DNA of 64,000 nucleotides from assembly GCF_030296715.1 (NCBI RefSeq), contig NZ_AP027738.1, positions 1,892,026-1,956,025 on the forward strand, read 5' to 3'. How positions within the stretch are numbered: position 1 is the first letter of the stretch; the number at the start of each line of letters is the position of its first letter. Both the position numbers and the translations under genes were made by a program. The DNA comes from Methanobacterium ferruginis (GTDB lineage Archaea; Methanobacteriota; Methanobacteria; Methanobacteriales; Methanobacteriaceae). Below the pieces are notes generated by a model. It was not told the DNA's origin. It was given only the letters and a program-made list of their open reading frames with translations, and did not search any database. Positions 1-62,702 of this stretch are shown piece by piece.

Positions 1-74
1 AACACATCTCCCGGTTTTACGGTTGATTATCCTTTCGATCCTGATTTTTTTTCCAATCATGAACACCCTCCTGT

Positions 75-235
<161 letters not shown>

Positions 236-284: not shown

Positions 285-1502
285 ATGAATAAAGAAGATG
301 AAACATTAATAAAAACTTTCTTCAGTGGCAACAGCTATGCCAAAAATACTCAAACTTTATACACTCTAGCCCTTACTAAATACTCACAATACCATAAACT
401 CACACTAGAAGAATTACTAACTGAAGCAGAAACCGAAGAAGATCAAGGAGTGCGTAAACGTCGTAGGAAAATAGGAACGCGAATAACAGAGTTTAAATCA
501 GCACTTGAATACATGCAAAAGTCTCCTAGCACAATAAAGTCTTACACTAATGCCATACGTTCATTTTATGACTATTACGATGTAACGCCACCAAAAATTA
601 AATTTAAAAACGGTAGTATTGGATTAGAAAAAAATTATGGTCGTCTACTTAAACAAGAAGACATCCGTAAAATGTGTGATGCCGGAGACACACGAGCCCG
701 AGCCATAATATACACCCTGGCCCTGACAGGTTTAAGTCAGGCAGAGCTCAGACGTATTAAAATTTATCAATTATTATCAGCTGCAACTGAAGTACTTGAA
801 AGACCTGTTAAGAGTGTAGAGGAATTTATCGATCTGGAAGAAGAACTCAACAATGAAATCCTCACATTGTATATCACCCGGGAAAAGGTGCATCATCGTT
901 ATTTTACATTTTTACCTCCTGAAGCCACACGACAAATAATTGCATATCTCCGAGAACGTGTAAACAGTGAAAACGAGAAATTACACCCTTCAAAATACCA
1001 CAATAATGGCCTATTATTTTTAAGCGTAAGTGGAAATCCACTCAGTAATTATGCACTCAGAATTCTCATAGTCAGATGTGGCCGGTATGCTGGATTCGAA
1101 TCAACATCTGAAAATAGGGCATATAGTTACTGGCGTGGCCATGCACTCAGAAAATATTTCATAAGCACCTTTAAAAATAAGACTGGTGAGGGTGAACTGG
1201 CTGAGTGGTTGGCAGGTCACAAGCCACGATTCACTGATGAAACATACTGGTACAAAGATATTGATGACCTGAAAGAAAAATATATGGCAGCCCTGGAATA
1301 TTTAAGCATAGAAAACACTCGAGTTAAAGACATTGAAACCAAGGATTATAAAGAAGTCATGAAAAACTTACCAGTGGTGGGTTGGGTTTTAGAATTACTG
1401 GATGATGATCCTGAATTCCAGAAAGAAGCCAAAAAAGCATTGAACCGTAAGAAAAAAATATTAAAAAACAATGAAAATTACTTGTTAATCTTTATACTTT
1501 AG
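285..1502 (+). CDS. int: tyrosine recombinase / phage-type integrase
   Basis: 405-aa ORF. Box II-like motif RGHALRKYF, and AGHKPRFTDETYWY gives the His...Tyr nucleophile region. LALTGLSQAELRR resembles box I. The stop codon overlaps the 19-bp repeat core at 1500-1518, and the gene is flanked by att-like direct repeats. Confidence 0.8.
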   Translation: MNKEDETLIKTFFSGNSYAKNTQTLYTLALTKYSQYHKLTLEELLTEAETEEDQGVRKRRRKIGTRITEFKSALEYMQKSPSTIKSYTNAIRSFYDYYDVTPPKIKFKNGSIGLEKNYGRLLKQEDIRKMCDAGDTRARAIIYTLALTGLSQAELRRIKIYQLLSAATEVLERPVKSVEEFIDLEEELNNEILTLYITREKVHHRYFTFLPPEATRQIIAYLRERVNSENEKLHPSKYHNNGLLFLSVSGNPLSNYALRILIVRCGRYAGFESTSENRAYSYWRGHALRKYFISTFKNKTGEGELAEWLAGHKPRFTDETYWYKDIDDLKEKYMAALEYLSIENTRVKDIETKDYKEVMKNLPVVGWVLELLDDDPEFQKEAKKALNRKKKILKNNENYLLIFIL

Positions 1503-2031
1503 GAGACCAGAGTTTTAATTCTTTTAATCTAGTTGGTATCCCATCATCACCACAAGACTCCAACCATCCCTTATTGGAACTGATCTTCTCAGTACCTTTT
1601 GCTGAGTGCAGGAAATCTAAAAGTCCGCGGTTTCTGATGATAGTTTCACGAGGTTTCAAAGTAGATGACCAAATATAAAACACTTTAAATGTAGTGTCCG
1701 GATGATAACCTCCACCAAGATCAACTGATAAAACATCACAGCCACCTAATTCGTTTACTTTTCGAGCAACTTCTTCCAGTGTCTCATGAAGACGCACATC
1801 ACTCTCGATAAACTCAATAGGAGTGCTAATTTCTTTAATTAGTTCATCTAATTTTTCTTTAGACTGGGAACCTTTATCCAATGCAATAATTTTACCTTCA
1901 AGTGCTAACTGGGCTATTATACGAGTGGAGTTACCAACATGGCAGCCAAGCTCCACTACAACATCATCCTTTTTTATAATGTCTCTTAGGACCTGTCTAT
2001 AAACTTCGATATCGTAAGCAACATTGATCAT
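1492..2031 (-). CDS. class I SAM-dependent methyltransferase-like protein (intact copy; target gene of the integrase module)
   Basis: 179 aa. Motif-I-like VVVELGCHVGNSTRIIAQLALEGKIIALD near the N-terminus. The last ~150 bp are duplicated at 75-235 and the first ~400 bp are duplicated at 54768-55175. Confidence 0.6.
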   Translation of the reverse strand: MINVAYDIEVYRQVLRDIIKKDDVVVELGCHVGNSTRIIAQLALEGKIIALDKGSQSKEKLDELIKEISTPIEFIESDVRLHETLEEVARKVNELGGCDVLSVDLGGGYHPDTTFKVFYIWSSTLKPRETIIRNRGLLDFLHSAKGTEKISSNKGWLESCGDDGIPTRLKELKLWSPKV

Positions 2032-2058: not shown

Positions 2059-3483
2059 TCAATCAACATTTTTTAAAACAGATTTATCAATAATATAGTT
2101 CCCTACAGCTTTAGAAACTTCATGATCATCATCATGTAAAAGGCCTTTCTTGTGCAAATAAACGAACCCTTTAATAACAACTGCAAGTGCATATAGTGTG
2201 GATAATACCTCATTTTCGGCATATTCACTGTTTGCCCCATGTACTGAAGTAGATCTTTTATTATAAAGTTTTTTGAACCAGTTCACTAATTCTTCTTTCT
2301 TCCAAAATAGTTCATGTTCCCCTTCAAAAAGGCTTATTTTATTTTCGTCCCATTGGGTTGACAAAATAGTTGCACCATGTAGGCGGAATTGATATCCTAA
2401 TTGTTCGTGGCTTTGAACTAAAATTATCTCTAAACCAATAACTGAATCAATTAATCTATCCCTATCAAGATCATCTAAACAAGCTCTACCAAAAAACCCT
2501 AATATATAATCTAAATTATTATATTCATTTAATGTGTTAGAATAATCATCTATTAAATCTCTTAGTTTATCTCTTATTTCTGGCTTAACAACAAAATTAG
2601 AGCTATGATCACTAAGTAAAGTACACAATTTGGGGTCCCGTTTAATTATATCCCTTTGTCTTGGGTTACATGTATTAATTATACCAGTTCCTTCACGGAT
2701 AGGGTAAGGATTATTAGACAAAACCATGATAGCCCATTTGATCAAATCTAAAATTCTAAATAAATATTGTTGTAATTTTTTATCTCCAATTCCTCTATAT
2801 TCATCTTTATAAAATGTATACTCTATTTCCACAAATGATTCTGTGTACATGGGAGACTTGCTATCATAATTATCTGATGCATATGTTGCATTATGAGCAT
2901 TTTGTGATGCAAATACAGCCCTTTCAGTTTTATTCCACTTTCTAATTTTCACATTTAAATTTTCAGTTTGGAAGAAAATCAGTTCATCAATATTATTCAT
3001 CTCAATGGGACACAAAGTCGAAATCAGCTTAACTTTATTTAAATTCTGTATTTTATACAAACAGAGTTCAACTTGACTTTCCAGAACATCTTGTAACTCT
3101 TTTTCCCTCATATCACAAGGTTCATCAGCGTTTTTGTTTTCCACAGCTCTCTTAAATTGATTATTATCAAATTCATCAAATAATATAGATACAAGATTAT
3201 GATACAAAGTATATTTCTCTTTTTCATTATTTGCCAGTTCGGGAGTGACATAAGTATTCAGAAAATCCACTAATTTATGAGATACAGGTTCATAAATGAG
3301 TTTGTAGTTTGCAGAACGAACAAGAACATTTTTATAACTCCATTCCCAACCATTGTCACGAAATTGATATATCGGCCACTTTATTTTAATGATGTTATGG
3401 GGAGATGAAAGTTCTAATTTATTAACATCTGTTAGTAATTCTTTTAATTTATCTATATCTAAAAGTGTATCATTTTCTGGCAA
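2059..3483 (-). CDS. hypothetical 474-aa protein with a C-terminal HEPN-like Rx4H motif (candidate Abi/ApeA-like abortive-infection RNase)
   Basis: Long ORF that is very AT-rich compared with its neighbours. NKRSTSVHGANSEYAENEVLSTLYALAV lies about 60 aa from the C-terminus and matches the HEPN Rx4-6H pattern. No other domain was recognised. Confidence 0.5.
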   Translation of the reverse strand: MPENDTLLDIDKLKELLTDVNKLELSSPHNIIKIKWPIYQFRDNGWEWSYKNVLVRSANYKLIYEPVSHKLVDFLNTYVTPELANNEKEKYTLYHNLVSILFDEFDNNQFKRAVENKNADEPCDMREKELQDVLESQVELCLYKIQNLNKVKLISTLCPIEMNNIDELIFFQTENLNVKIRKWNKTERAVFASQNAHNATYASDNYDSKSPMYTESFVEIEYTFYKDEYRGIGDKKLQQYLFRILDLIKWAIMVLSNNPYPIREGTGIINTCNPRQRDIIKRDPKLCTLLSDHSSNFVVKPEIRDKLRDLIDDYSNTLNEYNNLDYILGFFGRACLDDLDRDRLIDSVIGLEIILVQSHEQLGYQFRLHGATILSTQWDENKISLFEGEHELFWKKEELVNWFKKLYNKRSTSVHGANSEYAENEVLSTLYALAVVIKGFVYLHKKGLLHDDDHEVSKAVGNYIIDKSVLKNVD

Positions 3484-3811
3484 ATTATAACCCCTTTATA
3501 TACGTTGAATATTCGTAAAATTAAATCAAATGGGATTCTATTATTTTTTAGTCTTCAGCTTTAGTATCTCTACCCTCAAATGATTCTATATCATTAAGAA
3601 TATTATGTAAGGTTATATAAAATCAGGTTTATTTTTTTATATTGATATAACAGGAAGCATTTTTCAGAAACATATTACTTCTCACATGCTCTTTCTCTTG
3701 TTCCTTAAATCCCTCCCCTGAGTGATAAGCAACTAACAAAAATAAATAATAAAAATGGGGACGTAGCCATGGAGGGCCTAGATCCCGACCAAAGAATCAT
3801 AATATCTCTCC

Positions 3812-4084
3812 ATGGCTTCTTCACACACCCCGTTACCAGTGGTGGTGCAATTGGAGAGTATCATTAAACAACCTAATATAATTTATGAGAACAACCCTAG
3901 ACAAGTTCTCCTAATCCTCGGAATGCAATATGACGAAATCTACAGTAAGATATTACAACTCCAACCTGGAACCCAACAATACGAGGATCTGAAAACACAA
4001 GGCCAGGAAAACATCCAAGCCCGGGAAAAAATCTTATCAAACTTATTATTAGGATATTCAGATCTGGAGGTAAAATTATGGTAA
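3812..4084 (+). CDS. hypothetical small protein (90 aa)
   Basis: ORF only; no motif recognised. Confidence 0.25.
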   Translation: MASSHTPLPVVVQLESIIKQPNIIYENNPRQVLLILGMQYDEIYSKILQLQPGTQQYEDLKTQGQENIQAREKILSNLLLGYSDLEVKLW

Positions 4085-4202
4085 GCCTCCAGGGAAGAAT
4101 AGGGTTTAATTTTTTTAATTACAGGTCAGAAGAAAAGAATTGTTATATTGATACAAAAGTAGTTCAATTCCTGAAATTTAGACATAGCAATGAAATAAAA
4201 AA

Positions 4203-4439
4203 TTATTCAGAAGATTCTTTTTTAAGGGTGGTAATAGATGATCTGATCATCTCTGCTTTTTGTCCAGCAGTATCAGCAACAGTTTTTAAAACGTCTTCGT
4301 TAGATAAAATAACTATAGGAACTCCTTCAGATACTAGGCTTCTAATTGATTGTCCTGTTTCATCTTTGATTATTTTAAGTAATTCGTATTCTTCAAGTGG
4401 AACATCAATAGTTACTTTAGCTGAAACCAATTTTTTCAT
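4203..4439 (-). CDS. small RHH-like (beta-strand then two helices) DNA-binding protein, paralog 1 of 3
   Basis: 78 aa. KVTIDVPLEEYELLKIIKDETGQSIRSLVSEG has a beta-alpha-alpha pattern. The C-terminus is KKESSE*. The repeated 3' DNA motif aaaattattcagaRgaNtct is shared with the next two ORFs. Confidence 0.5.
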   Translation of the reverse strand: MKKLVSAKVTIDVPLEEYELLKIIKDETGQSIRSLVSEGVPIVILSNEDVLKTVADTAGQKAEMIRSSITTLKKESSE

Positions 4440-4469
4440 TAGAACACCTCATCAAAATGAAAAAGAAAA

Positions 4470-4706
4470 TTATTCAGAGGACTCTGTTTTTTTAAATTCC
4501 ATGTGTGCACGCATAGCTTCCAACATTTCTTTTGCTAAGAGGTCGTCATTTAATTTCCCATATTTAAAACTGACAAAATCTCTAAAATCTTCAAATGTTT
4601 TTTTATTGATTTCAAATTCAAGTCCGTTGATGTCAATTACTATTTTTTCTTGGGGCATTGTTAATCCCTCTTTAAAAACTTCGTTAGATACTATTTGTGA
4701 AAACAA
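4470..4706 (-). CDS. small protein, paralog 2 (C-terminus KKTESSE*)
   Basis: 78 aa. The 3' end is repeated in paralogs 1 and 3, and the units sit about 265 bp apart. Confidence 0.45.
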   Translation of the reverse strand: MFSQIVSNEVFKEGLTMPQEKIVIDINGLEFEINKKTFEDFRDFVSFKYGKLNDDLLAKEMLEAMRAHMEFKKTESSE

Positions 4707-4712
4707 AAAAAA

Positions 4713-4853
4713 TTATTCAGAATCTACGTATTTTTTGACTGCTTCACGTAAAATAAATGATCTTGATCGTTCTTGTTCTTCAGCTATGGCATCGATCTTT
4801 TTCAAGTCTTCTTCTTCTATATCGAAACAGGCTTTCACTTTCATGATGTCCAT
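4713..4853 (-). CDS. CopG/ribbon-helix-helix family small protein (46 aa), paralog 3
   Basis: Translated by hand as MDIMKVKACFDIEEEDLKKIDAIAEEQERSRSFILREAVKKYVDSE*, which carries the RHH signature (b-strand, then RSRSxxIREAV helix). It falls below the ORF-track length cutoff. Confidence 0.55.
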   Translation of the reverse strand: MDIMKVKACFDIEEEDLKKIDAIAEEQERSRSFILREAVKKYVDSE

Positions 4854-5094
4854 ATTATCTTTCCTTATATTAAATTATTTACTATTTTTACTTCTCATAT
4901 TAAATATAATTTTCTATAATATTCTATTAGAATATATTAGAAAATTATATATACTATTAGATTCTTAGTATAACTTGTCAAAAGACGAAATTCTTCAGAC
5001 ATTGTATTTCAATTTTCGTGAGGGCGTGTTTCTTTTTTTGCGTCCTCCAAACCCCCTCTATTCACGCCTGGGGGGATGAATTTGGAGGAAAAAC

Positions 5095-10288: not shown

Positions 10289-13200
10289 TTAAGGGGTTGA
10301 AATGTAGTCTGTTATGTTGTTGTATGTGTGTGAAGTAGATTGGTTGGTTTCAGATATGTATTCATCTATTCTTGTGAAAATTCCATCAGGAATGAGTTCT
10401 GTAGCTACGAAGTTTTGTACGATTTCTTGTACGCTTTTGCCGTAAGCTGTTTTTATCACACTTTCGATTACTCCATATTTAATGTATACTACTCTTGCCA
10501 CGTAAATTATTTCTGGAACTTCAACGCCACCTACAAATTTTACTCCCACTCTAACTGGTAATGTTTGGATTAAGTAACCTTCGAAACTTATTGGTATGTG
10601 TGAAGCAACAATGGCAACACCCTCTTTTATAAATTGAACTTCGTATAATTCACCTGCTACACCTCCACCACGTAATGGTAAGACATATGAGAGAACCAAA
10701 TTAGAAGTGAATTTAAACCCATTCCAAAAAGTCCACTCCTCACTAAGACCCGAATCAATATAATTAAGATAAATTCCGCCAGCACCAATAACTCCTCCCA
10801 AAAAAATTCCTTTAGGATTAGGAGGTCCATCTGCTTTGATAGTTTTGTAGAGTATTGATGATGATAGGGACATTATTAATCCACTTCCTAAACCTAATAT
10901 GCTGGTTTTGGAAATCGTTGGATTTGCTTCATTATTTGCAATAAGTGATGCTACTATCATACTTGCTATTAGGTATGCATCTTGTAGTTCTTCAAATGTG
11001 GGTGTTCTGTCAGGAGGTAACAACAATTCAATTATGCCATCCCACAGTGCTCGTGTATTCTCCTTCAAATTCCTGATGTCCTCTAAATTCCTCTGAACAT
11101 TGGGATTATTTTGAATATATTGATTATGTTCGTCCCATACTCCTTGTGGTGGTCCTGAACCCTTTCCTAACCATTGGAGCATACCATCCCATGCAATGTC
11201 AAAACTATTATTGTTTCTGAAGTATTCGGCTGTGTTGAATAATCCGTTGCTTTCGGCTTCTTCTATTGCTCCAGGCCTGAGATTATCAAGTAATTTAAGT
11301 GTTACTAGAGGCACCAATATTGGTGCTAAACCACCTAAAAAATATAGTTCACCAAGAGTAGCTGTTCCACATGCGGACTCTCCTATCACAGCGATGATAC
11401 TGCCTAAAGGAATTGTTGAATTACTAATGGAATTCATCCATTCCGGTTGAATAGTTGGATCGCTGCTGGTTAAGTTTTCAGCTAACGAAATTTGGTTGTC
11501 TGTTATTTGGTCATGGAAGCAGTAAACTCCGTTGATTCCTAATGCGCAGTCAGTAACTATTCCAGTAACCGGATCCAGCAATAAGAAAAGATCATCTTTG
11601 CCTTGAATTTTATAAACCAAATAACCGTTACTGTAGAATAATTCAGGTATTTCTCCGTTGAGGATGCGTTCTCCTAGTCCCAGGGTCACGGAGAGGCTAG
11701 TGGGGTCACTAGCCACACAATATTCTATGGGTGAGAATGCGGATGAACAGGCAAATCTGAATGCCCAAACATTGCTTATTGTGCCGTTTACGTCCATACC
11801 CATCCGGAGATTAGATTCACCAGTAATATAAGCATCTTTAGCATCATCAAGACATGAAACTACCACAGGAGTGGTGCGGCTCCATGTTACATTAAACTCC
11901 TCTGCTGCCTGGTCTGCCACCATGTCATGACATTTGATTACTAGGAGGGATGTGAGGAATGTTCCATAGGCTGCTTTCATAGCCCCTGGAGCGTATAAGG
12001 ATTGTTTGGCTAGCCAGTACTGCACCACATTATTGGTTACTTTGGTGGTGGCAATGGTAAAACTTCTTACACCTTCATATCCTGCATTTCCATCTTCAGT
12101 GTAACCATTGAAGTATATCATGGGGCTTTCACGAAGGATTACATCTCCTGGTTTAATAAAACTCAAAGTTTCGTTGGTATTGGGATTTTTGAGTGTTACA
12201 TATTCAGTAACATCTCCAGGATAAGTCATGAGAACATACATTGAATCTATGAACATATTTCGGTTATTTTTAATGAAATTAATTTCATTGTCTGTGAAAT
12301 TATTTTGTAGTTTAATCAGTGTTAAAAAAACATCTTCCAACTGTTCTATAGTGTAATTTTGGTACTGTGGGTTGAGAGTAATGAAATTCTGTAAGTAAAT
12401 GTTAGATTCTAGTGGATTTAAAAAAATTCCATTTATATAGAGTATTTGATTGAAAACTTGTGCAGAATAAGAATTTTGATAAGTGATATAAGCAGAATTA
12501 ACTACATTCCAACTTAAAACCACATTACCATTAACAATCAAGTCCACCTCATTATGGAATAAGCCGGTATTTTTCCATAATACACTGACCCAGCTTGTGG
12601 ATTCATTTAAAGGTAATGTATATGTTACATCGAGTGGTTGAGTTGTGGATAAGTCAATGGCGGTGCTTATGATCCTTACATTGGCTTGTGCAGCCCAGTC
12701 CACGCTGGTGAGAACGCCCTCATTATCCACTATTGCTATAACACCAGTAACATTGTAAAAATTGGGGTTTAACACCAATGTGGATGATGCTTTGCCATTT
12801 AATGTATATTGCAAGAAAGGTATTGTGCCATTTTGTGCTACGAAATATACTGGTATATTATCAGGTATGCAACCTTGAAGTGAGATATCTTCACCATTAC
12901 TATTATGTGTTAAGTCCGCAGTTATGGTAGATTCATAGATTTTTCCATTTGAAACTTTATATGAAGTAGGACTGATATTTAAAACAAGATAAGGAGTGAA
13001 ATTTTCTCCAATCCACCAAGTTGGTATTGTAGGTTGTTCAGAAGTAGTTTCCACATAAAAAACATCGGCGTTCATAGATAGGTCAGTACCTATTACTGGA
13101 TTGTTTGAACCCCACCAGTTATTAATAACATTAACAGAACCACCTTTCATAAAAAGGCCAGTTTTATTGTTTCCTGTAATCCGATTAAAATGTATATGGG

Positions 13201-16200
13201 CATTGGTGGCGTAAGTGTAAATCCCGATATAATTGTTAATTATAGTATTCTCCAGAACATGAGTATCTTCTGATCCTGAAGATGAACTGTAATAATCACT
13301 TTCGATGAAGATTCCATTTGTATTATTCATTATCAAGTTTTCAGTGATATAATTGTAGAAAGATATTGAATGTGTTCCAAAGCAGTATTCTTCATAATCT
13401 AAAATAGCATATTCATACAGTTCCGGGATATTATCATATGTAGAACTAAAAAACTCGTCAAAACTATCACACCAAGCAGGTACTAAAATACCTCTCTCAT
13501 TATTCATTATGATATTAGATTTGACTTGATTATATGATGAGTCCAAAACATAAACTCCATAACAGTTATTTTCAAGGGTGTTGTTTTCTATCGTGCAATT
13601 GTTAGTGGATTTGAGAAGTATGCCAGAAGGGGAAAGAATTTCTGAATATTGATTGGCTTGGTTAGCTCCAATAATAGTAAATCCATAAATGACTGAACCA
13701 TTTCCCCCTGTATTAATGGTGAAAACAGAAAGTGATGGATTAGCTGCCTGTACAGTTACATTACCCTCTGAAATAATAAATAAACTTTTATTAAGTTCAA
13801 TATTTTCCAGATATGTTCCATTTTCTACTAGTATGATGTCACCATCCCTTGTCAATGGATCATTTGCAGCTGCATGTATTGTGTTGAAAGATTTACGGAA
13901 ATCTTTAGAAATTGTTTCATCATCTGCACTTGCAAAAACAGTTGTTGCCTCAGATGAAGAGCTGGAAGTTAAATTCACAGTTGCTCTACCTTTTCTAGTA
14001 GTTGTAGTGGTCGTGATATTTCCCAGCGTGGTGGTGAAATTCACAGGTAAACCATCAGGTATTGCACCAGAACCAGAGGTATCTTCTCCCTGATTGTTAT
14101 GGGTTAGATCGGCAGTTATTTCCGAATTAGAGTTACTGTTTTGGGTTACATGAATAGTTGAGCCTGTTAAATTGAGCATCAGCCAAAGTTCGTGATCAAC
14201 AAATCCATCAGCAATGTGAATATCACTGGAATTATTTGAGGAAACTGTAAGGTTGTTGGTTCCCCACCAGTTGTTGTTTGCGTTTATAGTAGAGTTACCA
14301 TTAGTTTCAAGTCCATATATGTTGTTTTCAATTATTCTATTGAAATTGACAGAAGCTGAGGATGAATAAAAGGTTATTCCACTATAACGGTTATTGGAGA
14401 TGTCATTTTCATAGATGCTATTGTTGTAAGAATCAGAAAATTTCATTCCATTATAACTGTTATGGGAAATGTAATTTCCTAAAAATATATTATTATTACT
14501 TCCACAATTCATGCCCCCAAAATTTATTCCATCTGCACGATTGTATGAAATATTATTGTATAAAATCGTGTTATTTATTGAATTATGTGCTTGTATACCA
14601 TATGTATTCTGTAGAATAACATTATCTGCAATTATATTTTTAGAGGATAGTGAAAGATAAATTGCACAAAATTGGATTTGTTTTAAAATATTTGTTAAAA
14701 GTTGATTATCATTGGAGTTAACAATATTTACTCCTATCACTGCATTTAATAATTGATTCTCTTCTATTTTGCTATTTGACGATTCGCTAATATCAATTGC
14801 AGTGTATGAAGAACTATTTATCGTGTTGTTATGGATTAATGTATTATTTGAAGCATATATGGAGATCCCATAATAATTTCCTTGTATAATATTTCCAATA
14901 ATACTACAATTATTTGCAGACTGAAGATGTATACCCTTTGTATTTTCTGAAGTTTCAGTTTCTATTAAAGTGAAACCCTGTATAGAAGAACCATTTCCAC
15001 TTGAAGTTATGGTAAAAATGGGTTGAGATGAATCCAAAGCAAACAGAGTCACATTACCCTCAGAAACTGCTTTTATGGTGAGACTTTTATTAACAATAAT
15101 ATTCTCTGTGAAAGTTCCTAAGGAAACTTCGATGGTATGACCGCTCAAAGTCAATGGATCATTAATAGCTGCTTGAATACTAAAATAACTTCTTCCTGTA
15201 TTAATATTTTTTATTAATTCAATAATATATTGTTCAGTGTTAACAGGCCCTTGGTTACCTGCATTATCTACTGCTATGAATTTTAAGGTGGTGGTATTAA
15301 CTATGGTGATGGGATTGTTGTATATTGTGCTGGATGTTGTTGGGTTAGTACCATCTATAGTGTAATAGATAGTTGGATTTGGGTCAAGATTGTCTGTTGC
15401 AGTTAAAGTCACAGATTTTGTTGTATTGTAAGTTCCACTTGCAGGATTTGCAACCACGGTTGGTGCTAGGGTATCACTTGATGTTATGGTGATATTTGTT
15501 TGTTCAGTCTGTTCATCTAGTGTAGTAGTGATGGTTGCTGTTCCTGAAGTGGCTGAGCCGCGGTTGAATGTTGTATTTGCTTTTCCATTGTTGGTGTATG
15601 CTGTAGTGGTTATTGTACCTAAATTAGTGGTGAAATTCACTGGAATACCATCTGGTAGATGACCTTGTGAAGAAGTATCGACTCCATTGCTGTTGTGTGT
15701 GAGATCTGCAGTTACAATAGAATTATTATAAGTGGTCGTAGGGGTAGCGATTACATTTAAGACCAACCAAGGGTCTACACACCAAAGAGCTTCATGATCA
15801 TACCATTGTTCAAACACAAAACCATGGCAAAAAATGTCCATAGGGGTGGTTGGTACAGAATAGTCAGAATAATCCATTAATATCTGATTAGAACCCCACC
15901 AGTTATTTTCTGCATCAAAAGATATTCCTTCAATCACTTCTAACCATAAGTCAGCAATATTATTATCGTTTAGCTGGTTGAAGTGCATGTTAAATTGGCT
16001 GGAATTGGAGTAAACACCATAAACGTTTTCAGATATGATATTGCTTATTATGCTGGTGTCGCTTGTGTTCATTCCCCCAATGGCCCAGATTCCACTCCAA
16101 TCACCTAATAAATAAATACCATAGTGATTATTTTTTATTTTATTTTGGGATATTGTGTTGTATAATGAAAATGAAGAATATAATTCTGTACACTCTGCAG

Positions 16201-18247
16201 GGATGAAAATTCCCTGTGTGTTATCTGTTATGCTATTTGACGTAATGTTATTGTTTGATGAATTAAAAAGACTGAGGCCTTCCTGATTATTTGTCACATG
16301 ATTTGAAATAATCTGGTTTCCTGAGGAGTTAGATAAATAGATTCCTTTACTATTACTAATAATATAGTTACCTTGTATTTTACAGTTGCATGCTGAGTCT
16401 AGATATATTCCTGCAGAATTGGTGGCAGCAGTAATCCAGAGATAACGGATCCATGATCCACTACCAAGAGAGGTCACGGTTAAAACAGGTTTCGATGGGT
16501 CAGCAGCCCTTAATGTCACACCCTCACAATCTGGTGTCAGGGTAAGTTTTTTGTTAAGAATGATATTTTCAGTAGGAAGAGTCGCTGCAAGGTAGAGTAA
16601 GTGCCCGTTAATAGTTAATGGATCATCAATTGCTTCTTGGATGGTGGCATAAACTTTTGTTGTGTTGGCATTTTCAACTGGAAGGTTTAATCTGTAAGTT
16701 TCGGTTTGTATTGGTGATTGATTTCCAGTGAAATCTATGGCCATAAATTTTAAAGTAGTAATTCTGTTTTCAAGGAGTATGGGACCCACATACAATGTAC
16801 TTGTGGTTGTAGGGTTACTGCCATTAATTGTGTAATAAATGTGAGGATCAGGGTCGGTGTTATCAGTTACAGTTAAGGTTATATTCTGATAAGTGTTGTA
16901 GGTTCCTCCTGGTAGATTGGCTGTTACGGTTGGTGCTAGGGTATCACTTGATGTTATGGTGATATTTGTTTGTTCAGTCTGTTCATCTAGTGTAGTAGTG
17001 ATGGTTGCTGTTCCTGAAGTGGCTGAGCCGCGGTTGAATGTTGTATTTGCTTTTCCATTGTTGGTGTATGCTGTAGTGGTTATTGTACCTAAATTAGTGG
17101 TGAAATTCACTGGAATACCATCTGGTAGATGACCTTGTGAAGAAGTATCGACTCCATTGCTGTTGTGTGTGAGATCTGCTGTTATGGTAGCGTTATTTGT
17201 CACATTTGTAGGGACTGCAGTTACATTTAGAACCAACCAGGGATCGTATAGGACTGTTCCACCCATTATCATAATATTTGCAGTTTCATTAGAGGACACT
17301 GTTGGGTTGTTAGTTCCCCACCAGTTGTTTGTTGCATTTACATTTCCATTCTCACTGCTAAGCTCATAATCACTGTTTGAAGAAATTCTGTTAAAATGGA
17401 TATCCGCTGAAGAGTTATAAAGATAAATCGTTGCCCAGGTACCAATGATATTATTTTTATAGATATATGTATTGTCTGAATTAGAGATACGAATATCACT
17501 GAGGGTGTTTTCACATATGATACTATTAGCTGAATAATTTGAGATATAAATGCCACCTAAATTATTCTCAAAAAAGATATTATCCATGGAATAATTGAAT
17601 AGTCTGATGGCATCATCGACATTATTATTATCGATGACATTGTCCGTAGAGTTGTATAGGTTAAATCCACCTCCTTCGATATTCACGGAATTATTATTTC
17701 CAGAAATAATGTTGTTCATTGAATTTTCAAGAATAATCCCCATACCATTGTCTATCACAATATTTTCCAATATCTCATTGTTGTTTGAATTTAGAAGTCT
17801 CATTCCAGAACAGCCATTTCCTCTAGCTGAATTTCCAGAAATAGTACAATCATTAGCAGAATTAACATAAACACCAGTAATACCCCCAGTTATAGTAAAA
17901 CCACTAATTATGGATCCACTACCTCCAGAGTTTATAGTTAATGTAGGGTTTGAATAATTGGAAGCTTTAATTGTAACATTAGAACCAGTATCTGTTTTTA
18001 AATTAATATTTTTGTTAATAACAATATTCTCAGTATAAGTATAAGCAGAACCATTATTATCATTCACTATTATGGAATCACCAGAAGATGCACTGTCCAC
18101 CACTGACTGAATACTATCACCCACACTCACATTCCACTCAGCCGCTGAAACTGCTCCACAAAAAAATAACAAAACCACTAAAAACAAGATACCAAAAGAA
18201 AATTTAGACACATTACTCATATTTTTCCCCCCACACATACTTTTCAC
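10289..18247 (-). CDS. giant secreted adhesin-like protein (about 2650 aa) with repeated parallel beta-helix modules, NWWG(T/S)NN motifs and Big/chitobiase-C-like modules
   Basis: N-terminal signal peptide. The likely start is the second ATG, at 18220, after a GGGGGG run. There are four modules of NS/NN-rich beta-helix repeats, each followed by ADLTHNSNG(V/E)D...PDG(I/L)PVNFTT and TLKF(M/I)A(I/V)D..GNQ segments. The architecture is typical of methanogen adhesin-like proteins. Confidence 0.75.
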   Translation of the reverse strand: MKSMCGGKNMSNVSKFSFGILFLVVLLFFCGAVSAAEWNVSVGDSIQSVVDSASSGDSIIVNDNNGSAYTYTENIVINKNINLKTDTGSNVTIKASNYSNPTLTINSGGSGSIISGFTITGGITGVYVNSANDCTISGNSARGNGCSGMRLLNSNNNEILENIVIDNGMGIILENSMNNIISGNNNSVNIEGGGFNLYNSTDNVIDNNNVDDAIRLFNYSMDNIFFENNLGGIYISNYSANSIICENTLSDIRISNSDNTYIYKNNIIGTWATIYLYNSSADIHFNRISSNSDYELSSENGNVNATNNWWGTNNPTVSSNETANIMIMGGTVLYDPWLVLNVTAVPTNVTNNATITADLTHNSNGVDTSSQGHLPDGIPVNFTTNLGTITTTAYTNNGKANTTFNRGSATSGTATITTTLDEQTEQTNITITSSDTLAPTVTANLPGGTYNTYQNITLTVTDNTDPDPHIYYTINGSNPTTTSTLYVGPILLENRITTLKFMAIDFTGNQSPIQTETYRLNLPVENANTTKVYATIQEAIDDPLTINGHLLYLAATLPTENIILNKKLTLTPDCEGVTLRAADPSKPVLTVTSLGSGSWIRYLWITAATNSAGIYLDSACNCKIQGNYIISNSKGIYLSNSSGNQIISNHVTNNQEGLSLFNSSNNNITSNSITDNTQGIFIPAECTELYSSFSLYNTISQNKIKNNHYGIYLLGDWSGIWAIGGMNTSDTSIISNIISENVYGVYSNSSQFNMHFNQLNDNNIADLWLEVIEGISFDAENNWWGSNQILMDYSDYSVPTTPMDIFCHGFVFEQWYDHEALWCVDPWLVLNVIATPTTTYNNSIVTADLTHNSNGVDTSSQGHLPDGIPVNFTTNLGTITTTAYTNNGKANTTFNRGSATSGTATITTTLDEQTEQTNITITSSDTLAPTVVANPASGTYNTTKSVTLTATDNLDPNPTIYYTIDGTNPTTSSTIYNNPITIVNTTTLKFIAVDNAGNQGPVNTEQYIIELIKNINTGRSYFSIQAAINDPLTLSGHTIEVSLGTFTENIIVNKSLTIKAVSEGNVTLFALDSSQPIFTITSSGNGSSIQGFTLIETETSENTKGIHLQSANNCSIIGNIIQGNYYGISIYASNNTLIHNNTINSSSYTAIDISESSNSKIEENQLLNAVIGVNIVNSNDNQLLTNILKQIQFCAIYLSLSSKNIIADNVILQNTYGIQAHNSINNTILYNNISYNRADGINFGGMNCGSNNNIFLGNYISHNSYNGMKFSDSYNNSIYENDISNNRYSGITFYSSSASVNFNRIIENNIYGLETNGNSTINANNNWWGTNNLTVSSNNSSDIHIADGFVDHELWLMLNLTGSTIHVTQNSNSNSEITADLTHNNQGEDTSGSGAIPDGLPVNFTTTLGNITTTTTTRKGRATVNLTSSSSSEATTVFASADDETISKDFRKSFNTIHAAANDPLTRDGDIILVENGTYLENIELNKSLFIISEGNVTVQAANPSLSVFTINTGGNGSVIYGFTIIGANQANQYSEILSPSGILLKSTNNCTIENNTLENNCYGVYVLDSSYNQVKSNIIMNNERGILVPAWCDSFDEFFSSTYDNIPELYEYAILDYEEYCFGTHSISFYNYITENLIMNNTNGIFIESDYYSSSSGSEDTHVLENTIINNYIGIYTYATNAHIHFNRITGNNKTGLFMKGGSVNVINNWWGSNNPVIGTDLSMNADVFYVETTSEQPTIPTWWIGENFTPYLVLNISPTSYKVSNGKIYESTITADLTHNSNGEDISLQGCIPDNIPVYFVAQNGTIPFLQYTLNGKASSTLVLNPNFYNVTGVIAIVDNEGVLTSVDWAAQANVRIISTAIDLSTTQPLDVTYTLPLNESTSWVSVLWKNTGLFHNEVDLIVNGNVVLSWNVVNSAYITYQNSYSAQVFNQILYINGIFLNPLESNIYLQNFITLNPQYQNYTIEQLEDVFLTLIKLQNNFTDNEINFIKNNRNMFIDSMYVLMTYPGDVTEYVTLKNPNTNETLSFIKPGDVILRESPMIYFNGYTEDGNAGYEGVRSFTIATTKVTNNVVQYWLAKQSLYAPGAMKAAYGTFLTSLLVIKCHDMVADQAAEEFNVTWSRTTPVVVSCLDDAKDAYITGESNLRMGMDVNGTISNVWAFRFACSSAFSPIEYCVASDPTSLSVTLGLGERILNGEIPELFYSNGYLVYKIQGKDDLFLLLDPVTGIVTDCALGINGVYCFHDQITDNQISLAENLTSSDPTIQPEWMNSISNSTIPLGSIIAVIGESACGTATLGELYFLGGLAPILVPLVTLKLLDNLRPGAIEEAESNGLFNTAEYFRNNNSFDIAWDGMLQWLGKGSGPPQGVWDEHNQYIQNNPNVQRNLEDIRNLKENTRALWDGIIELLLPPDRTPTFEELQDAYLIASMIVASLIANNEANPTISKTSILGLGSGLIMSLSSSILYKTIKADGPPNPKGIFLGGVIGAGGIYLNYIDSGLSEEWTFWNGFKFTSNLVLSYVLPLRGGGVAGELYEVQFIKEGVAIVASHIPISFEGYLIQTLPVRVGVKFVGGVEVPEIIYVARVVYIKYGVIESVIKTAYGKSVQEIVQNFVATELIPDGIFTRIDEYISETNQSTSHTYNNITDYISTP
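15456..15709. repeat. 254-bp segment repeated exactly 1470 bp downstream (16926-17179), inside the adhesin gene
   Basis: Compared base by base; the two copies are identical. Confidence 0.85.
16926..17179. repeat. second copy of the exact 254-bp intragenic repeat
   Basis: Identical to 15456-15709. Confidence 0.85.
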
Positions 18248-21295: not shown

Positions 21296-21903
21296 ATTTG
21301 AAAGTTGATTTCTGTAGTTATGAAGCAGCTAAACATGCAGTATTGCATTGGCATTACTCACGGTCAATGCCCGCAGGAAAACTAGTGAAAATTGGTGCAT
21401 GGGAAAATGGAAAATTCATTGGATGTGTGCTCTTTGGAAGAGGAGCAAACAATCACATAGGAAATCCTTACAATTTAAAACAAAATGAAGTATGTGAACT
21501 TGTTAGAATTGCACTAAAAAACCACCAAACAAATGTAACCAAAATAGTAAGCAAATCTTTAAAACTATTGAAAAAAACGAATCCGTACCTTAAATTAGTT
21601 GTAAGCTATGCAGATAAAGACCAAAATCATTTAGGGAAAATATATCAAGCAGGTAATTGGATATATGATGGTTTAAAAAACCAAAACACTGCAGGAGCAT
21701 TTATAATTAAAAACAAAAAGGTACACCCCCGATCTGTTGCATCTATGGGATGGGTACAATCATTAAAATGGATTCAGGAGAATGTTGACCCTAATGCTAG
21801 AACACATATTACAAAAGGTAAATTCAAATATCTCTACCCCTTGTCCAAAAAAACACGTGAACAAATCAGACCTTTAAAGAAACCTTATCCTAGGCGGTTG
21901 TAG
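21268..21903 (+). CDS. hypothetical protein (211 aa), overlaps the ParB-like gene; possible DNA-modification partner
   Basis: Overlapping, translationally coupled ORF. No confident motif. Confidence 0.45.
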   Translation: MSRVWIRMVDLKVDFCSYEAAKHAVLHWHYSRSMPAGKLVKIGAWENGKFIGCVLFGRGANNHIGNPYNLKQNEVCELVRIALKNHQTNVTKIVSKSLKLLKKTNPYLKLVVSYADKDQNHLGKIYQAGNWIYDGLKNQNTAGAFIIKNKKVHPRSVASMGWVQSLKWIQENVDPNARTHITKGKFKYLYPLSKKTREQIRPLKKPYPRRL

Positions 21904-21970
21904 TTTAATGGAGGCCAAAACCCATCATCATACCAATGATGAGAAGCTGGTTCAAATCCAGCCAACCGCA
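21894..21970 (+). tRNA. tRNA-like gene (77 nt); putative anticodon UAC (Val) in a non-canonical loop
   Basis: Folded by hand. Acceptor stem 7 bp and perfect (gcggttg/caaccgc). D stem gttt/aaac with a GG-containing loop. T stem gctgg/ccagc with loop TTCAAAT. The anticodon stem is 6 bp (catcat/atgatg) with loop CATACCA, so position 33 is A and position 37 is C, both atypical. The 5' end overlaps the stop codon of the upstream ORF. Confidence 0.45.
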
Positions 21971-22033
21971 CTCAAACCTGAATTAATGCGAGATTAGAAA
22001 AATTATTATACAAAATTAATATTACTAACTAAC

Positions 22034-23436: not shown

Positions 23437-23994
23437 ATGAAGGAGAAAGAAAACCACCTCGACGCTTTTGAGTATTTTTACAGTCTTGGAGGTGCTGCAT
23501 CTGCAGAAAATTGCAGAAAAGTTGCAGATAAATTTCAGATATCTGAAAGATCATTCTGGAACTGGTACAAGGAATTAGGGTGGAAAGAAAGGGTTCACCT
23601 ACGCAACATTGAAGTTGCCAAAGGAGTGGAAGAAAAAACGGTCTCTACTCTTATTGAGAATAAAGCGAAGTACCTATCTTACGTTCACAAATTATTCGAT
23701 GACTGGAAAGCGAAGGTTGATGCTGGTGAGGTTCCAGTTGAGATTAAATCCGTTAGTGATGTTGATAAAATTGTGAAACTTGCTTTACTACTTCAAGATG
23801 AGGCTACTGATAAGACTGAAACTTCTGTTACTGGAACTTTAAATTTTAAAGCCCAGGGTTTGGAGCGCCTGAGAAGGATTGAGGCACAGCATGACAGCGG
23901 TGACGGTGGCCACTCCTCAGTCGACGGAGGACCTGCAGGCACAGGTGAATCTGGAACTGAGGAACATTCAGAAACAAGAACCAGAGATAAATAG
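23437..23994 (+). CDS. putative terminase small subunit (HTH-type)
   Basis: It lies immediately upstream of the terminase large subunit, which it overlaps. The N-terminus is helix-rich (FEYFYSLGGAASAENCRKVADKFQISERSFWNW) and the C-terminus is acidic. Confidence 0.5.
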   Translation: MKEKENHLDAFEYFYSLGGAASAENCRKVADKFQISERSFWNWYKELGWKERVHLRNIEVAKGVEEKTVSTLIENKAKYLSYVHKLFDDWKAKVDAGEVPVEIKSVSDVDKIVKLALLLQDEATDKTETSVTGTLNFKAQGLERLRRIEAQHDSGDGGHSSVDGGPAGTGESGTEEHSETRTRDK

Positions 23995-25447
23995 TCTTGA
24001 AGATCTTATTGATTGGAAGATTACAGTCTGGGAAAAACAGTTTGAAGTTGATGACCGGGTTCGATGCCTGTGGCAGTCCCTTTCCCGGGATGAAAAAGAT
24101 AATTTTTATGATACTGTTATTCTGAATCCTTACATTCCTGTTGTTCCATTTTTCCAGCAGATATTGCTTCTGGTTACCCATGGATCTACCTTGTATGGTG
24201 GTGCTCGTGGTGGGGGTAAGACTGAGGCCAGTTTGATAGCTGCTCTGCAATATGTTGATTATCCTCAGTGGAAAGCTGGTATTTTCCGTTTAACTTATCC
24301 TGATTTGTCAGCTCCAGGGGCCATAATGGACCGTGCCCTTGACTGGCTGAGTAAAGATAGAAATCCCCTACTTGAAGAGGCGGGTATTGCACCACGTTGG
24401 GATAAAGCTGACAAGGTTTTCATATTTCCTAGTGGTGCTAAGGTTAAATTTGCCCATGTTCAGCATAATAAAGATGCTGAGAAATACCAGGGCAGTGAAT
24501 TCCATTTATTAATATTTGATGAAGCAGTACTCTTCACTGAGTACAAAATTACTAGGATTAAAGGTTCTAATCGTAAGAAAATCAATGATCCGCTACCGAT
24601 ACGGATTATTTTCACAGGTAACCCTGGTGGTATTAGTCATGATTATTTCAAGGATAGATTTATTGATGGTCCTGGCCTGTTCATTGACAGTAAATATACT
24701 GATAATCCGTACTTGGACCATGAGAAATATGAAGAGATTTTTATTGAAATTGAGGACAGTGATCCTGTCCTTTGGAGGCAGTGGAAGCATGGTGATTGGA
24801 ATGCAGTGCCTGAAGGTAAACTCTTCAAACGAAAATGGTTCACCAAGGCCAGTCGTCTCTATGAAGTCATCACAGAAAAAATACTGCAATGGGTGCGTTT
24901 CTGGGATCTGGCCGCTACAGAAGAAGAAGATGATACCAAACAGGGAGGAGCTGACTGGACCGTGGGAATGCTCCTCGGCCTAGGAGAATCTGGTAAAGTT
25001 TACCTGGAGGATATTGTAAGATTCCGAAAAGATGCAGATGAAGCTGAAGAACTGATCCTGGAAACCGCCAGGAAAGATGCAGAAAAATATGGAAGGACCA
25101 ATATCAAGATCCGGATAGAAAAAGAAGGCGGAGCATCAGCCAATTATGTGATGAACACATTCAGCAAATACCTACCCGGATTTGACTTTGAAGGCCACAA
25201 CGTCCAAAGAAAAAGCAAATTAGACCGAGCCAGAGCATTTGTCAGTTTCATTAAACACGGTCACCTCAAAATAAGAGAAGGAGCAAGCTGGATAACCACA
25301 TTCATAAATGAAGTAGCATCATTCCCCACCAAAGGAATCCATGATGACCAAGTGGACACTCTCAGCGGAGGATTAAACGAACTATTTTATGGTGAGCAAC
25401 CCACGGAACGTGTTCCATTCAACCCAACATTAAGGAGCAGAAGATAA
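23879..25447 (+). CDS. terL: terminase large subunit
   Basis: Walker A GGARGGGKT, and a Walker B-like hhhhDE in HLLIFDEAV. 522 aa. The following gene is portal-sized. The true start may lie downstream of 23879. Confidence 0.8.
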   Translation: MRHSMTAVTVATPQSTEDLQAQVNLELRNIQKQEPEINSLEDLIDWKITVWEKQFEVDDRVRCLWQSLSRDEKDNFYDTVILNPYIPVVPFFQQILLLVTHGSTLYGGARGGGKTEASLIAALQYVDYPQWKAGIFRLTYPDLSAPGAIMDRALDWLSKDRNPLLEEAGIAPRWDKADKVFIFPSGAKVKFAHVQHNKDAEKYQGSEFHLLIFDEAVLFTEYKITRIKGSNRKKINDPLPIRIIFTGNPGGISHDYFKDRFIDGPGLFIDSKYTDNPYLDHEKYEEIFIEIEDSDPVLWRQWKHGDWNAVPEGKLFKRKWFTKASRLYEVITEKILQWVRFWDLAATEEEDDTKQGGADWTVGMLLGLGESGKVYLEDIVRFRKDADEAEELILETARKDAEKYGRTNIKIRIEKEGGASANYVMNTFSKYLPGFDFEGHNVQRKSKLDRARAFVSFIKHGHLKIREGASWITTFINEVASFPTKGIHDDQVDTLSGGLNELFYGEQPTERVPFNPTLRSRR

Positions 25448-49544: not shown

Positions 49545-50516
49545 ATGAAAAATATGAGTTGTTTTTTAGAATTAGGAAGCAAAGGAGATGACAGAATAGC
49601 ATTACTCGAAAGGAGATTAAAATATCTCGGATACTACCGAGGAGTGATAGACGACTACTATGGCCCACTACTCAACCAAGCAGTCCAACAATACCAGGCC
49701 AACAAAGGATTACAAATGGACTGTGTGGGGCCAATTACATGGAACAGTCTATTCCCATCAGACACCTGCCCATCTAACTGGTTATACCAGGGCTGCCAGG
49801 GGGATAATGTTAAAGCTCAGCAGATCACTCTCCAAGGCCTAGGATTCTATACTGGCTATAAAGTGGATGGTGATTTTGGACAATATATGGACCAGGAAGT
49901 CAGGAAATTCCAACAGGCTACTGGCATAATAGTAGATGGAATAATCGGTGACCAGACCATAAAAGCAGAATTAACCTACCAAAAAACTGCTGCAAAACCA
50001 GTCACTGATGGAAATTGTTTTGAATCAGCCCAGTACACTGTTTGGAAACAGGAAATGAATAAATACACACGCCGAACATGCGGACCATTCGCAGTAAAAG
50101 AAGCCATCTTCGAATGGGGATTAAATCCAGATATTGACACTGTGGTGAAATACATAAACACTCAGTTAGGTTATACTGGAACCGCACCATCCGATATACT
50201 GGAAGGAGTGCCTAAGTTAACCGATGCCATGAGTGTACCCTGCAAAGCATATCTTATGAACCATACTGAAATTGGTGGGTTCCCAGGTTTAGGTGAAGTA
50301 TTGGCTGATCCTAAAAAGACTACAATAGCTCATATTGCATATAAAAGCAGCAGCTGCAACCATTACCATACACCAGTTAAACTCTGTTTGAATGAAAAAA
50401 GAATTACAATTGCAGAGAACTTACATGGAGCTTATGAAAAGTACAGTTTCGCTGGATACACTCCTCTGATTGAGAATTGTGCACAGAAAACCTGGATGAT
50501 CTTTGAGCAGATCTAA
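49545..50516 (+). CDS. pei: pseudomurein endoisopeptidase-like lysin (PeiW/PeiP family). It has two N-terminal PG_binding_1/pseudomurein-binding repeats and a C-terminal Cys-protease-like domain.
   Basis: Repeats LERRLKYLGYYRGVIDDYYGPLLNQAVQQYQANKGLQMDCVGPITWNSL and ITLQGLGFYTGYKVDGDFGQYMDQEVRKFQQATGIIVDGIIGDQT. RRTCGPFAVKEA is a candidate catalytic Cys motif (CxxFA-type), with downstream His/Asp candidates. It sits at the end of the tail module. Confidence 0.65.
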   Translation: MKNMSCFLELGSKGDDRIALLERRLKYLGYYRGVIDDYYGPLLNQAVQQYQANKGLQMDCVGPITWNSLFPSDTCPSNWLYQGCQGDNVKAQQITLQGLGFYTGYKVDGDFGQYMDQEVRKFQQATGIIVDGIIGDQTIKAELTYQKTAAKPVTDGNCFESAQYTVWKQEMNKYTRRTCGPFAVKEAIFEWGLNPDIDTVVKYINTQLGYTGTAPSDILEGVPKLTDAMSVPCKAYLMNHTEIGGFPGLGEVLADPKKTTIAHIAYKSSSCNHYHTPVKLCLNEKRITIAENLHGAYEKYSFAGYTPLIENCAQKTWMIFEQI

Positions 50517-54461: not shown

Positions 54462-54765
54462 CTCCCTGCTGTATTTAGTGGGGGAGCATTATTATATACA
54501 AAAGTAGTCAAGGGAGTTATCCAGAGGAGCATGTGAGAAGTAATCTTGATAACCAATCGAAAAATAGTTAGGATCCACACGGTCACCAGCTGCTAAAAAT
54601 ATCCCGGAGGGTGTACTTTTGCAGCGGCCCAAGAGGTGGTGTGAGGATCCTCTAGAATACTATTACTTAATACTAGTATATAAATGTGTAATATCAAGAA
54701 TAAGTAAAACTATTTAAGATGCCGTGAAAAACAGATAACTATTGATATAGCCATCCCTACTTCTA

Positions 54766-55175
<410 letters not shown>

Positions 55176-62481: not shown

Positions 62482-62577
62482 AGTAAATCACATATTAGTT
62501 AAATGTTGGGTATAAAAATCATTCCCTATCCTTCCATAATCCCATATATATTCTAATGTCCTATAACTCTACATCAT

Positions 62578-62702
62578 TCTAATTCTATATTATTTTACTA
62601 AATCTTATAGCTTTTACAGAATTTTATAGCTATTTCAATTCCGTATTATTTTACTAAATTTTATAGCTTTTACAGGATCCTATAGCCATCCTAATTCCAT
62701 AT
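62578..62702. repeat. about 62-bp imperfect tandem repeat (about 2.3 copies) in the intergenic region upstream of the oxidoreductase
   Basis: aattctatattattttactaaatcttatagcttttacagaattttatagctatttcaattcc is followed by a near-identical copy. Confidence 0.6.

Follow-up and report, generated by a model that had tools for sequence, protein, structure and literature searches.

We describe a gene of the methanogen Methanobacterium ferruginis that lies at positions 2059–3483 on the minus strand of a 64,000-nucleotide stretch of DNA (contig NZ_AP027738.1, positions 1,892,026 to 1,956,025), which was analysed as a whole and is called the window below. Its 474-amino-acid product, the target, belongs to a sizeable family that is absent from the curated model libraries we searched, and the N-terminal half of the protein has no known fold. 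On balance, we favour the view that the target is a stand-alone HEPN RNase of this uncatalogued family, carried by a provirus as accessory cargo and activated by infection. The components of this proposal differ in strength. Judging from the predicted structure, the C-terminal domain very likely has the HEPN fold, and we consider it probable that the protein is an RNase, whereas the complete scenario, in which the enzyme would dimerise, be governed by a sensor region and act against viruses, is one towards which we only lean. An earlier note on this DNA had interpreted the gene as a horizontally acquired protein of ApeA/Abi type with an HEPN motif. Our results support that interpretation overall, with the corrections that the motif is meaningful by virtue of its conservation, that the argument from GC content is weak, and that the likeness to ApeA is one of layout only. 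The parts of the gene are as follows.

2059–3483, minus strand: complete coding sequence of the target, 474 amino acids with a TTG start, from the open reading frame (ORF) call and the identical NCBI protein.
2584–3483, minus strand: N-terminal region, residues 1–300, presumed to be the sensor or regulatory part, from the predicted model and alignment.
2083–2583, minus strand: C-terminal all-helical HEPN-like domain, residues ~301–467, from the predicted model and conservation.
Within 2083–2583, minus strand: conserved blocks of the HEPN-like domain, FGRAC (331–335), RD (341–342), GLE (350–352) and YxFxLHGA (364–371), from alignment.
2239–2256, minus strand: catalytic-type R-x4-H motif RSTSVH, R410 to H415, from translation and in register with R502 and H507 of Ec2ApeA.

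The ORF reported earlier at this location is real. An AAGGGG sequence resembling a Shine–Dalgarno site lies 8 nt 5′ of the TTG codon, the start is shared with the N-termini of homologs in the alignment, and an NCBI protein of M. ferruginis (P0001) is 100% identical to the target over 474 amino acids. This NCBI entry already bears the name ‘HEPN domain-containing protein’, which means that we are not the first to call it HEPN.

A C-terminal Rx4H motif of the kind found in HEPN RNases had been noted from the letters of the sequence, and it is indeed present ~60 residues before the C-terminus. The bare R-x4-6-H pattern is within chance, given that it occurs once in the target, whereas shuffled residues average 1.39 occurrences and 77% of shuffles contain at least one match. 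We count R410 and H415 as evidence because they are conserved in the family, and not because the pattern is present. Among the 10 closest homologs, R410, S411, H415 and G416 are invariant, as are the FG(R)AC segment (331–335), D342, G350-L351 and the residues Y364/F366/L368-H-G-A371. In a diverse set of 75 family members at ~20% identity, which is used for all counts out of 75 below, R410 and D342 are retained in every sequence, H415, R333 and G350 in 74, and S411 and Y407 in 69, while position 352 is either E or D in all 75. Lack of conservation of the arginine and histidine among homologs had been named beforehand as an outcome that would refute the proposal, and the opposite was found.

An AlphaFold2 model of the target, built from a 10-sequence alignment, has a predicted template modelling score (pTM) of 0.82 and a mean predicted local distance difference test score (pLDDT) of 78. 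Residues 1–300 are modelled as a mixed alpha/beta region and residues 301–467 as seven helices, with an all-alpha four-helix core resembling solved HEPN domains. We assign the HEPN fold because the confident model of this domain is all-helical, R410, H415 and D342 are conserved, the catalytic segment aligns with that of Ec2ApeA, two family members match Pfam HEPN models, and NCBI had given the protein its HEPN name. A Foldseek search of the Protein Data Bank (PDB) with the full target model returned no match at E<0.01. No ApeA chain was among the fold-search results, which came from libraries that may lack the ApeA entries.

The large N-terminal region was described as uncharacterised in the earlier note, and no known family or fold emerged for it here. 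The model of these 300 residues is confident, but no convincing structural or sequence relative was found. Residues ~1–145 are predicted to be helical with one beta-hairpin and residues ~148–300 to be alpha/beta, such that about 10 beta-strands occur in the N-terminal half of the protein. The helical part bears a weak likeness to the ligand-binding domains of TetR proteins, and the model shows no sign of a CARF fold or of a Pds5-like one. Conserved residues include R282 (74 of 75), E264 (73), K249 (64), D246 (63) and W250 (58), as well as G265.

Sequence-model libraries gave almost uniformly negative results. Even at E<=1, the target protein matches nothing in Pfam, NCBIfam, PADLOC or PHROGs; among the models left unmatched are the Pfam families Abi_2, AbiU2, ApeA_NTD and Swt1, which had been suggested as checks. 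The family leaves the HEPN models for Abi_2 (AbiD/AbiF), AbiU2, Swt1 and RnlA/LsoA unmatched. No Pfam or NCBIfam HEPN model is matched at E<=0.1–1 by the nine closest relatives or the family consensus, and nine relatives that have only the C-terminal domain in common with the target likewise lack library matches. PDB sequence searches with the family profiles produced spurious matches only. In the set of 75, one member matches Pfam HEPN_Apea (1.5e-6) and one matches HEPN_RiboL-PSP (2.5e-3), and searches against PADLOC gave no convincing match, and none to ApeA. These negative results carry little weight because genuine ApeA proteins also escape HEPN_Apea. In a control, a protein 99% identical to the characterised Ec2ApeA has no Pfam match at E<=0.01, including HEPN_Apea and ApeA_NTD, and reaches the PADLOC ApeA model at only 2.2e-12, and two more distant ApeA homologs match neither model. 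Defence finders based on hidden Markov models therefore probably under-detect even the ApeA family.

ApeA is the closest known system in layout. Like DARNA, it is a single-protein HEPN defence RNase with a large non-catalytic region. It cleaves tRNA anticodon loops, forms decamers or dodecamers shaped like a doughnut, and is activated by 5′-phosphorylated deoxydinucleotides that occupy a pocket between the N-terminal and HEPN domains; the monomer is described as mostly helical and comprises an N domain resembling catenin, a Mid domain resembling PafA and a HEPN domain that is split (bioRxiv 10.64898/2026.01.26.701840). A second ApeA study reports that RNA-phage genomes are cleaved directly. 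In the 2013 census of HEPN proteins, a region of ~300 amino acids termed ApeA-NTD1 is fused to HEPN in proteins that are commoner in Bacteria than in Archaea and sometimes reside inside restriction–modification (R-M) operons (PMC3710099). The target resembles the ApeA proteins (Ec1-4ApeA and Thr1ApeA; PDB 9HXI and related entries) in that one gene encodes an extensive non-catalytic region at the N-terminus and, after it, the HEPN domain at the C-terminus, and both are found in variable neighbourhoods of defence and mobile-element genes.

These parallels raise the alternative that the target is a highly divergent but true ApeA, with the same three-domain plan and ligand pocket, and with small nucleic-acid fragments triggering its cleavage of tRNA anticodons. 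The coarse layout of the target (helical ~1–145, alpha/beta ~148–300, HEPN 301–467) fits the description of ApeA and the ~300-residue ApeA-NTD1 plus HEPN of the census (PMC3710099), the catalytic helices are in register with the common pattern Y-x-x-R-[N/S]-x-x-x-H...G, and one family member matches HEPN_Apea, as noted above. Moreover, ApeA is itself diverse, as Ec2ApeA misses Pfam HEPN_Apea and matches Ec4ApeA in the HEPN part only. To compare the two families, a 30-sequence ApeA profile made from full-length Ec2ApeA homologs was aligned with the 75-member family profile by use of hhalign. At full length, the probability is only 19%, and the 47 aligned columns cover the catalytic helix only, placing R410 and H415 on R502 and H507, and Y407 on Y499. 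The C-terminal domains alone align with 65% probability (E 6e-5), a result that common HEPN ancestry could explain and that does not single out ApeA. By contrast, family residues 1–300 and ApeA residues 1–334 are unrelated as profiles, with a probability of 0.1%.

Other comparisons point in the same direction. The family profile retrieves no ApeA chain at E<=10 from the PDB sequence set, in which ApeA chains are present, and none of the 75 members matches the PADLOC ApeA model. The invariant ApeA pocket residues T36, Y37, K38, S40, E74, R148 and R152 have no aligned counterparts in the target family, the target is ~110 residues shorter, and its model places strands in an N-terminal half for which the ApeA description would lead one to expect helices. 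We therefore regard descent from within ApeA as unlikely. Judged by every sequence test applied, the target is an HEPN protein of ApeA-like layout and is not a member of the ApeA family. The proposed ApeA/Abi-type architecture thus stands with respect to the arrangement of an N-terminal region and a C-terminal HEPN domain in one gene, but does not extend to homology of the N-terminal region.

The remaining HEPN systems are more readily set apart. In DARNA (PD-T7-3), the domain order is reversed, HEPN being N-terminal and a Pds5-like domain C-terminal, and Csm6/Csx1-type effectors differ in that Csm6 uses a CARF sensor, a fold missing from the N-terminal model of the target. Minimal HEPN proteins and toxins (AF0298/UPF0332, 4nqf, HepT/SO_3166 and HI0074) and AbiV consist of HEPN only, are 120–200 amino acids long and are 9–14% identical to the target in sequence. 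They usually have a nucleotidyltransferase or antitoxin as a partner, whereas the target carries 300 additional residues at its N-terminus and lacks a conserved partner gene.

The family is large and widely dispersed. A word-indexed search found 10 relatives, including a paralog (P0002, 62% identity) on the same 2.8-Mb chromosome, several Methanobacterium-like metagenomic proteins (39–53%) and three distant proteins (26–28%). A 472-amino-acid ORF in the window (56913–58331) was considered as the 62% paralog and rejected, as it encodes a PAS/histidine-kinase protein. An exhaustive profile search yielded at least 519 clusters at 50% identity with E<=1e-3, of which 90 have E<=1e-30. Almost all are singletons, and they span Archaea and Bacteria, with named members from Nostoc and from a Myxococcaceae metagenome-assembled genome. 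Most of the 150 matches listed are ~450–490 amino acids in length and cover nearly the whole profile.

Gene neighbourhoods were inspected at 11 loci, comprising the window and 10 homolog loci, which is a small sample that lacks a statistical background. The homolog loci are characterised as follows.

P0004 locus: provirus-like genes, PMBR among them, and a Peptidase_M78 gene with DUF4411 upstream.
P0006 locus: genes for an MmeI-type methyltransferase/endonuclease and for a TaqI_C specificity protein directly upstream of the homolog.
P0005 locus: integrated plasmid-like element with DpnII R-M, primase and integrase genes.
P0016 locus (Nostoc): EcoO109I R-M genes at a distance of 4 kb, with a FitA/PIN pair following the homolog directly.
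P0012 locus: homolog adjoining a primase-polymerase and a protein of DUF4145, which the 2013 census counts among the HEPN families (PMC3710099).
P0044 locus: TIR-domain protein 2 kb upstream and ISL3 transposase downstream.
P0099, P0021 and P0029 loci: no clear defence neighbours.
P0007 locus (Methanobacterium oryzae DSM 11106): ordinary chromosomal context with no clear defence neighbours.

Defence or mobile-element genes are thus nearby in 7 of the 11 loci. No gene recurs beside the family in these loci, and in particular there is no nucleotidyltransferase and no conserved adjacent antitoxin gene of the HepT/MNT type. Given that most of the listed matches are full-length and that the 11 loci lack a recurrent neighbour, we interpret the protein as acting on its own; the variable defence and mobile-element contexts, together with the missing partner, suggest a stand-alone system that travels with variable islands. 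The M. oryzae homolog (L011:10001-11113) has 370 amino acids and lacks the first ~90–100 residues, and a separate 67-amino-acid ORF is present just upstream, such that this homolog is possibly a decaying copy.

A mechanism can be proposed on the basis of established HEPN biochemistry. HEPN domains dimerise, and the arginine and histidine of both subunits together create a composite, metal-independent RNase site; where such domains occur in defence proteins, their activity is gated by a second region (PMC3710099). In the target, the four-helix HEPN core would dimerise, R410 and H415 of each subunit would form the composite metal-independent site, and D342 and the helices bearing GLE and YxFxLHGA would support it. 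The ~300-residue N-terminal region would hold the nuclease off in the lysogen until it sensed a cue of superinfection, stress or cell damage, whereupon the nuclease would be turned on. Cleavage of tRNA, mRNA or viral RNA would then halt the incoming virus, whether through abortive infection or through direct restriction. A more ambitious version of this proposal, which we put forward only tentatively, is that the proteins constitute an undescribed family of stand-alone immune RNases, sparsely distributed in archaea and bacteria on proviruses and defence islands. The N-terminal region of these proteins might be a new infection sensor, composed of a helical bundle that weakly resembles TetR ligand-binding domains and an alpha/beta module with an invariant D/K/W/E/R cluster, that allosterically activates the HEPN domain.

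Some considerations weigh against a defence RNase and should be kept in mind. As reported above, the target and the family consensus go unmatched in Pfam, PADLOC, NCBIfam and PHROGs. Also, 4 of the 11 contexts lack obvious defence or mobile-element genes, and the figure of 7 of 11 is a plain count.

The target lies inside inserted DNA, as is evident from the following features of the window.

74–229, minus strand: displaced 3′ fragment of a host methyltransferase gene, 81% identical to 1491–1646, with a core resembling an attachment (att) site at its inner end (~211–229).
285–1502, plus strand: tyrosine recombinase (XerA-like or phage integrase) marking the provirus end, from library matches.
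1492–2031, minus strand: 179-amino-acid class-I S-adenosylmethionine methyltransferase, an intact element-borne copy of the interrupted gene, from library matches and DNA identity.
4203–4439, 4470–4706 and 4713–4853, all minus strand: three tandem small genes of 78, 78 and 46 amino acids, read by eye as ribbon-helix-helix (RHH) proteins.
23879–25447: large terminase, part of the basis for calling a tailed provirus.
49545–50516: PG_binding lysin-like protein, part of the same basis.
54761–55159, minus strand: frameshifted 5′ fragment of the host methyltransferase gene at the far provirus boundary, 80–90% identical to 1632–2007, with an att-like core at its inner end (~54761–54779).

Both methyltransferase fragments end at the same point of the gene and have an imperfect core of ~19 nt in common. 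The simplest reading is that an element of ~54.5 kb (~229–54761) was inserted into the host methyltransferase gene. The element has an intact copy of that gene (80–90% DNA identity) next to its integrase and would thus appear to supply a substitute for what it disrupts. Two tandem elements are a possible alternative, and the target would be inside inserted DNA either way. We also considered the internal core of the methyltransferase (1632–1646) as the phage attachment site attP and rejected it, as the integrase would then lie at one end of the prophage and the HEPN gene at the other, contrary to observation.

Horizontal acquisition of the target, as claimed in the earlier note, is therefore strongly indicated by its provirus location, but only weakly by its composition. 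The GC content of the gene is low (30.0%, and 21% at third codon positions) compared with the provirus body (36.8%), the host flank (33.9%) and the whole window (36.1%), but to call it very low is an overstatement, as a neighbouring host histidine-kinase gene comes near the target at 31.4%. Similarly, the gene is integrase-proximal without being an immediate neighbour of the integration module, because the methyltransferase gene intervenes before the integrase. The target occupies a lower-GC stretch (2059–5000) along with the three small RHH-like genes. These have repeated 3′ ends (repeat family D6), each ending ...SE, and a Pfam scan of two of the three found no RHH match. As read by eye, they could be regulators or antitoxin-like, and any tie to the target would be conjectural. 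An overlapping 296-amino-acid ORF on the plus strand (4078–4968) looks spurious.

A comparable arrangement has been described in the Methanobrevibacter smithii provirus MSTV1, where a putative HEPN toxin and antitoxin-like genes occur in an integrase-proximal hypervariable region, and methyltransferases are found in its relatives (PMC11375127). In both cases, an HEPN gene with small antitoxin-like or RHH genes resides in the integrase-proximal variable region of a Methanobacteriales tailed provirus. However, the HEPN gene of MSTV1 (ORF4) is reported to belong to a three-gene co-transcribed unit resembling a toxin–antitoxin (TA) system (PMC11375127), whereas the target is apparently stand-alone, and the two are likened here by description and position, not by sequence.

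It might accordingly be proposed that the target is an addiction toxin that stabilises the provirus, with an antidote in the form of an RHH-like protein or of the methyltransferase, acting as an immunity factor by 2′-O-methylating RNA. The MSTV1 authors suggested this same role for the HEPN gene in the equivalent region (PMC11375127), and the three RHH-like genes are located 0.7–1.4 kb upstream of the target on the same strand, although a 90-amino-acid ORF may lie between them on the plus strand. The methyltransferase gene begins its run 27 nt downstream of the target stop codon on the same strand, and the two are possibly co-transcribed. Its product shows weak FtsJ/RrmJ-type similarity, below curated cut-offs, and matches PADLOC mad2 of the MADS system (4.8e-6); 2′-O-methylation would block HEPN cleavage, which makes the idea chemically attractive. 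Nevertheless, the methyltransferase is not a conserved partner of the family, and neither it nor an RHH gene is consistently adjacent at the 10 other loci. It is also better explained as the replacement copy of the disrupted gene, and an N-terminal region of 300 residues is atypical for a simple TA toxin. For these reasons, we think an addiction role improbable.

Less probable still is that the target serves the viral life cycle rather than immunity, for example as an RNase that shuts off host RNA during lytic growth or processes viral transcripts. Carriage by a provirus is compatible with such a role. In addition, an IMG/VR phage contig (IMGVR_UViG_3300022690_001541, L007:1676-3052) encodes a 458-amino-acid protein beside portal, terminase and ParB-methyltransferase genes that has the HEPN subtype alone in common with the family (hhalign 95.6% over ~100 residues) and a different N-terminal part, which suggests that this HEPN module is combined with other front ends. 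However, most of the sampled family members are found outside recognisable virus genomes, next to R-M or TA genes or in ordinary chromosomal settings, and tblastn found no relative in 50,697 phage records, nor in a plasmid collection. From the MSTV1 precedent (PMC11375127) we infer that an integrase-proximal variable position is typical of accessory genes expressed during lysogeny rather than of core lytic functions. Finally, we give very little credence to the notion that HEPN is a misassignment, in which case the C-terminal domain would be some generic bundle of helices whose conserved arginine and histidine have a role other than RNA cleavage, such as binding or scaffolding.

If the target is indeed a provirus-borne defence RNase, it would join a small number of candidate single-gene antiviral systems in methanogen viruses for which a concrete, testable active site can be named. 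To our knowledge, the virus–host conflict systems of methanogens are almost unexplored by experiment. Single-protein HEPN nucleases such as ApeA and DARNA were only recently shown to couple a sensor region to RNA cleavage, each with a different cue, and an active target would extend the HEPN repertoire by a new sensor module and exemplify immunity encoded by a provirus in Methanobacteriales. Pipelines now used to find defence genes would overlook the family, as Pfam, NCBIfam, PADLOC and PHROGs all lack a model for it. Should the target prove to be merely another divergent HEPN toxin, the result would be routine. The principle would be surprising only if the N-terminal region senses something new.

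Other observations concern the remainder of the window. The provirus also encodes a DUF2341 protein and a 2652-amino-acid beta-helix protein (10289–18247, minus strand) with NosD/right-handed beta-helix, CHB_HEX_C and Fn3-associated domains, the gene for which contains an internal 300-nt repeat (15423–15722 versus 16893–17192, 94% identity). To judge by eye, it might be a provirus adhesin or receptor-binding protein, or else a surface protein of the host. A tRNA-Val gene (anticodon TAC; 21894–21971, plus strand) also falls within the provirus, shortly upstream of the packaging genes. In the host flank, a 56-nt AT-rich unit occurs twice in tandem with 84% identity (62576–62687), upstream of a gene at 61516–62481.

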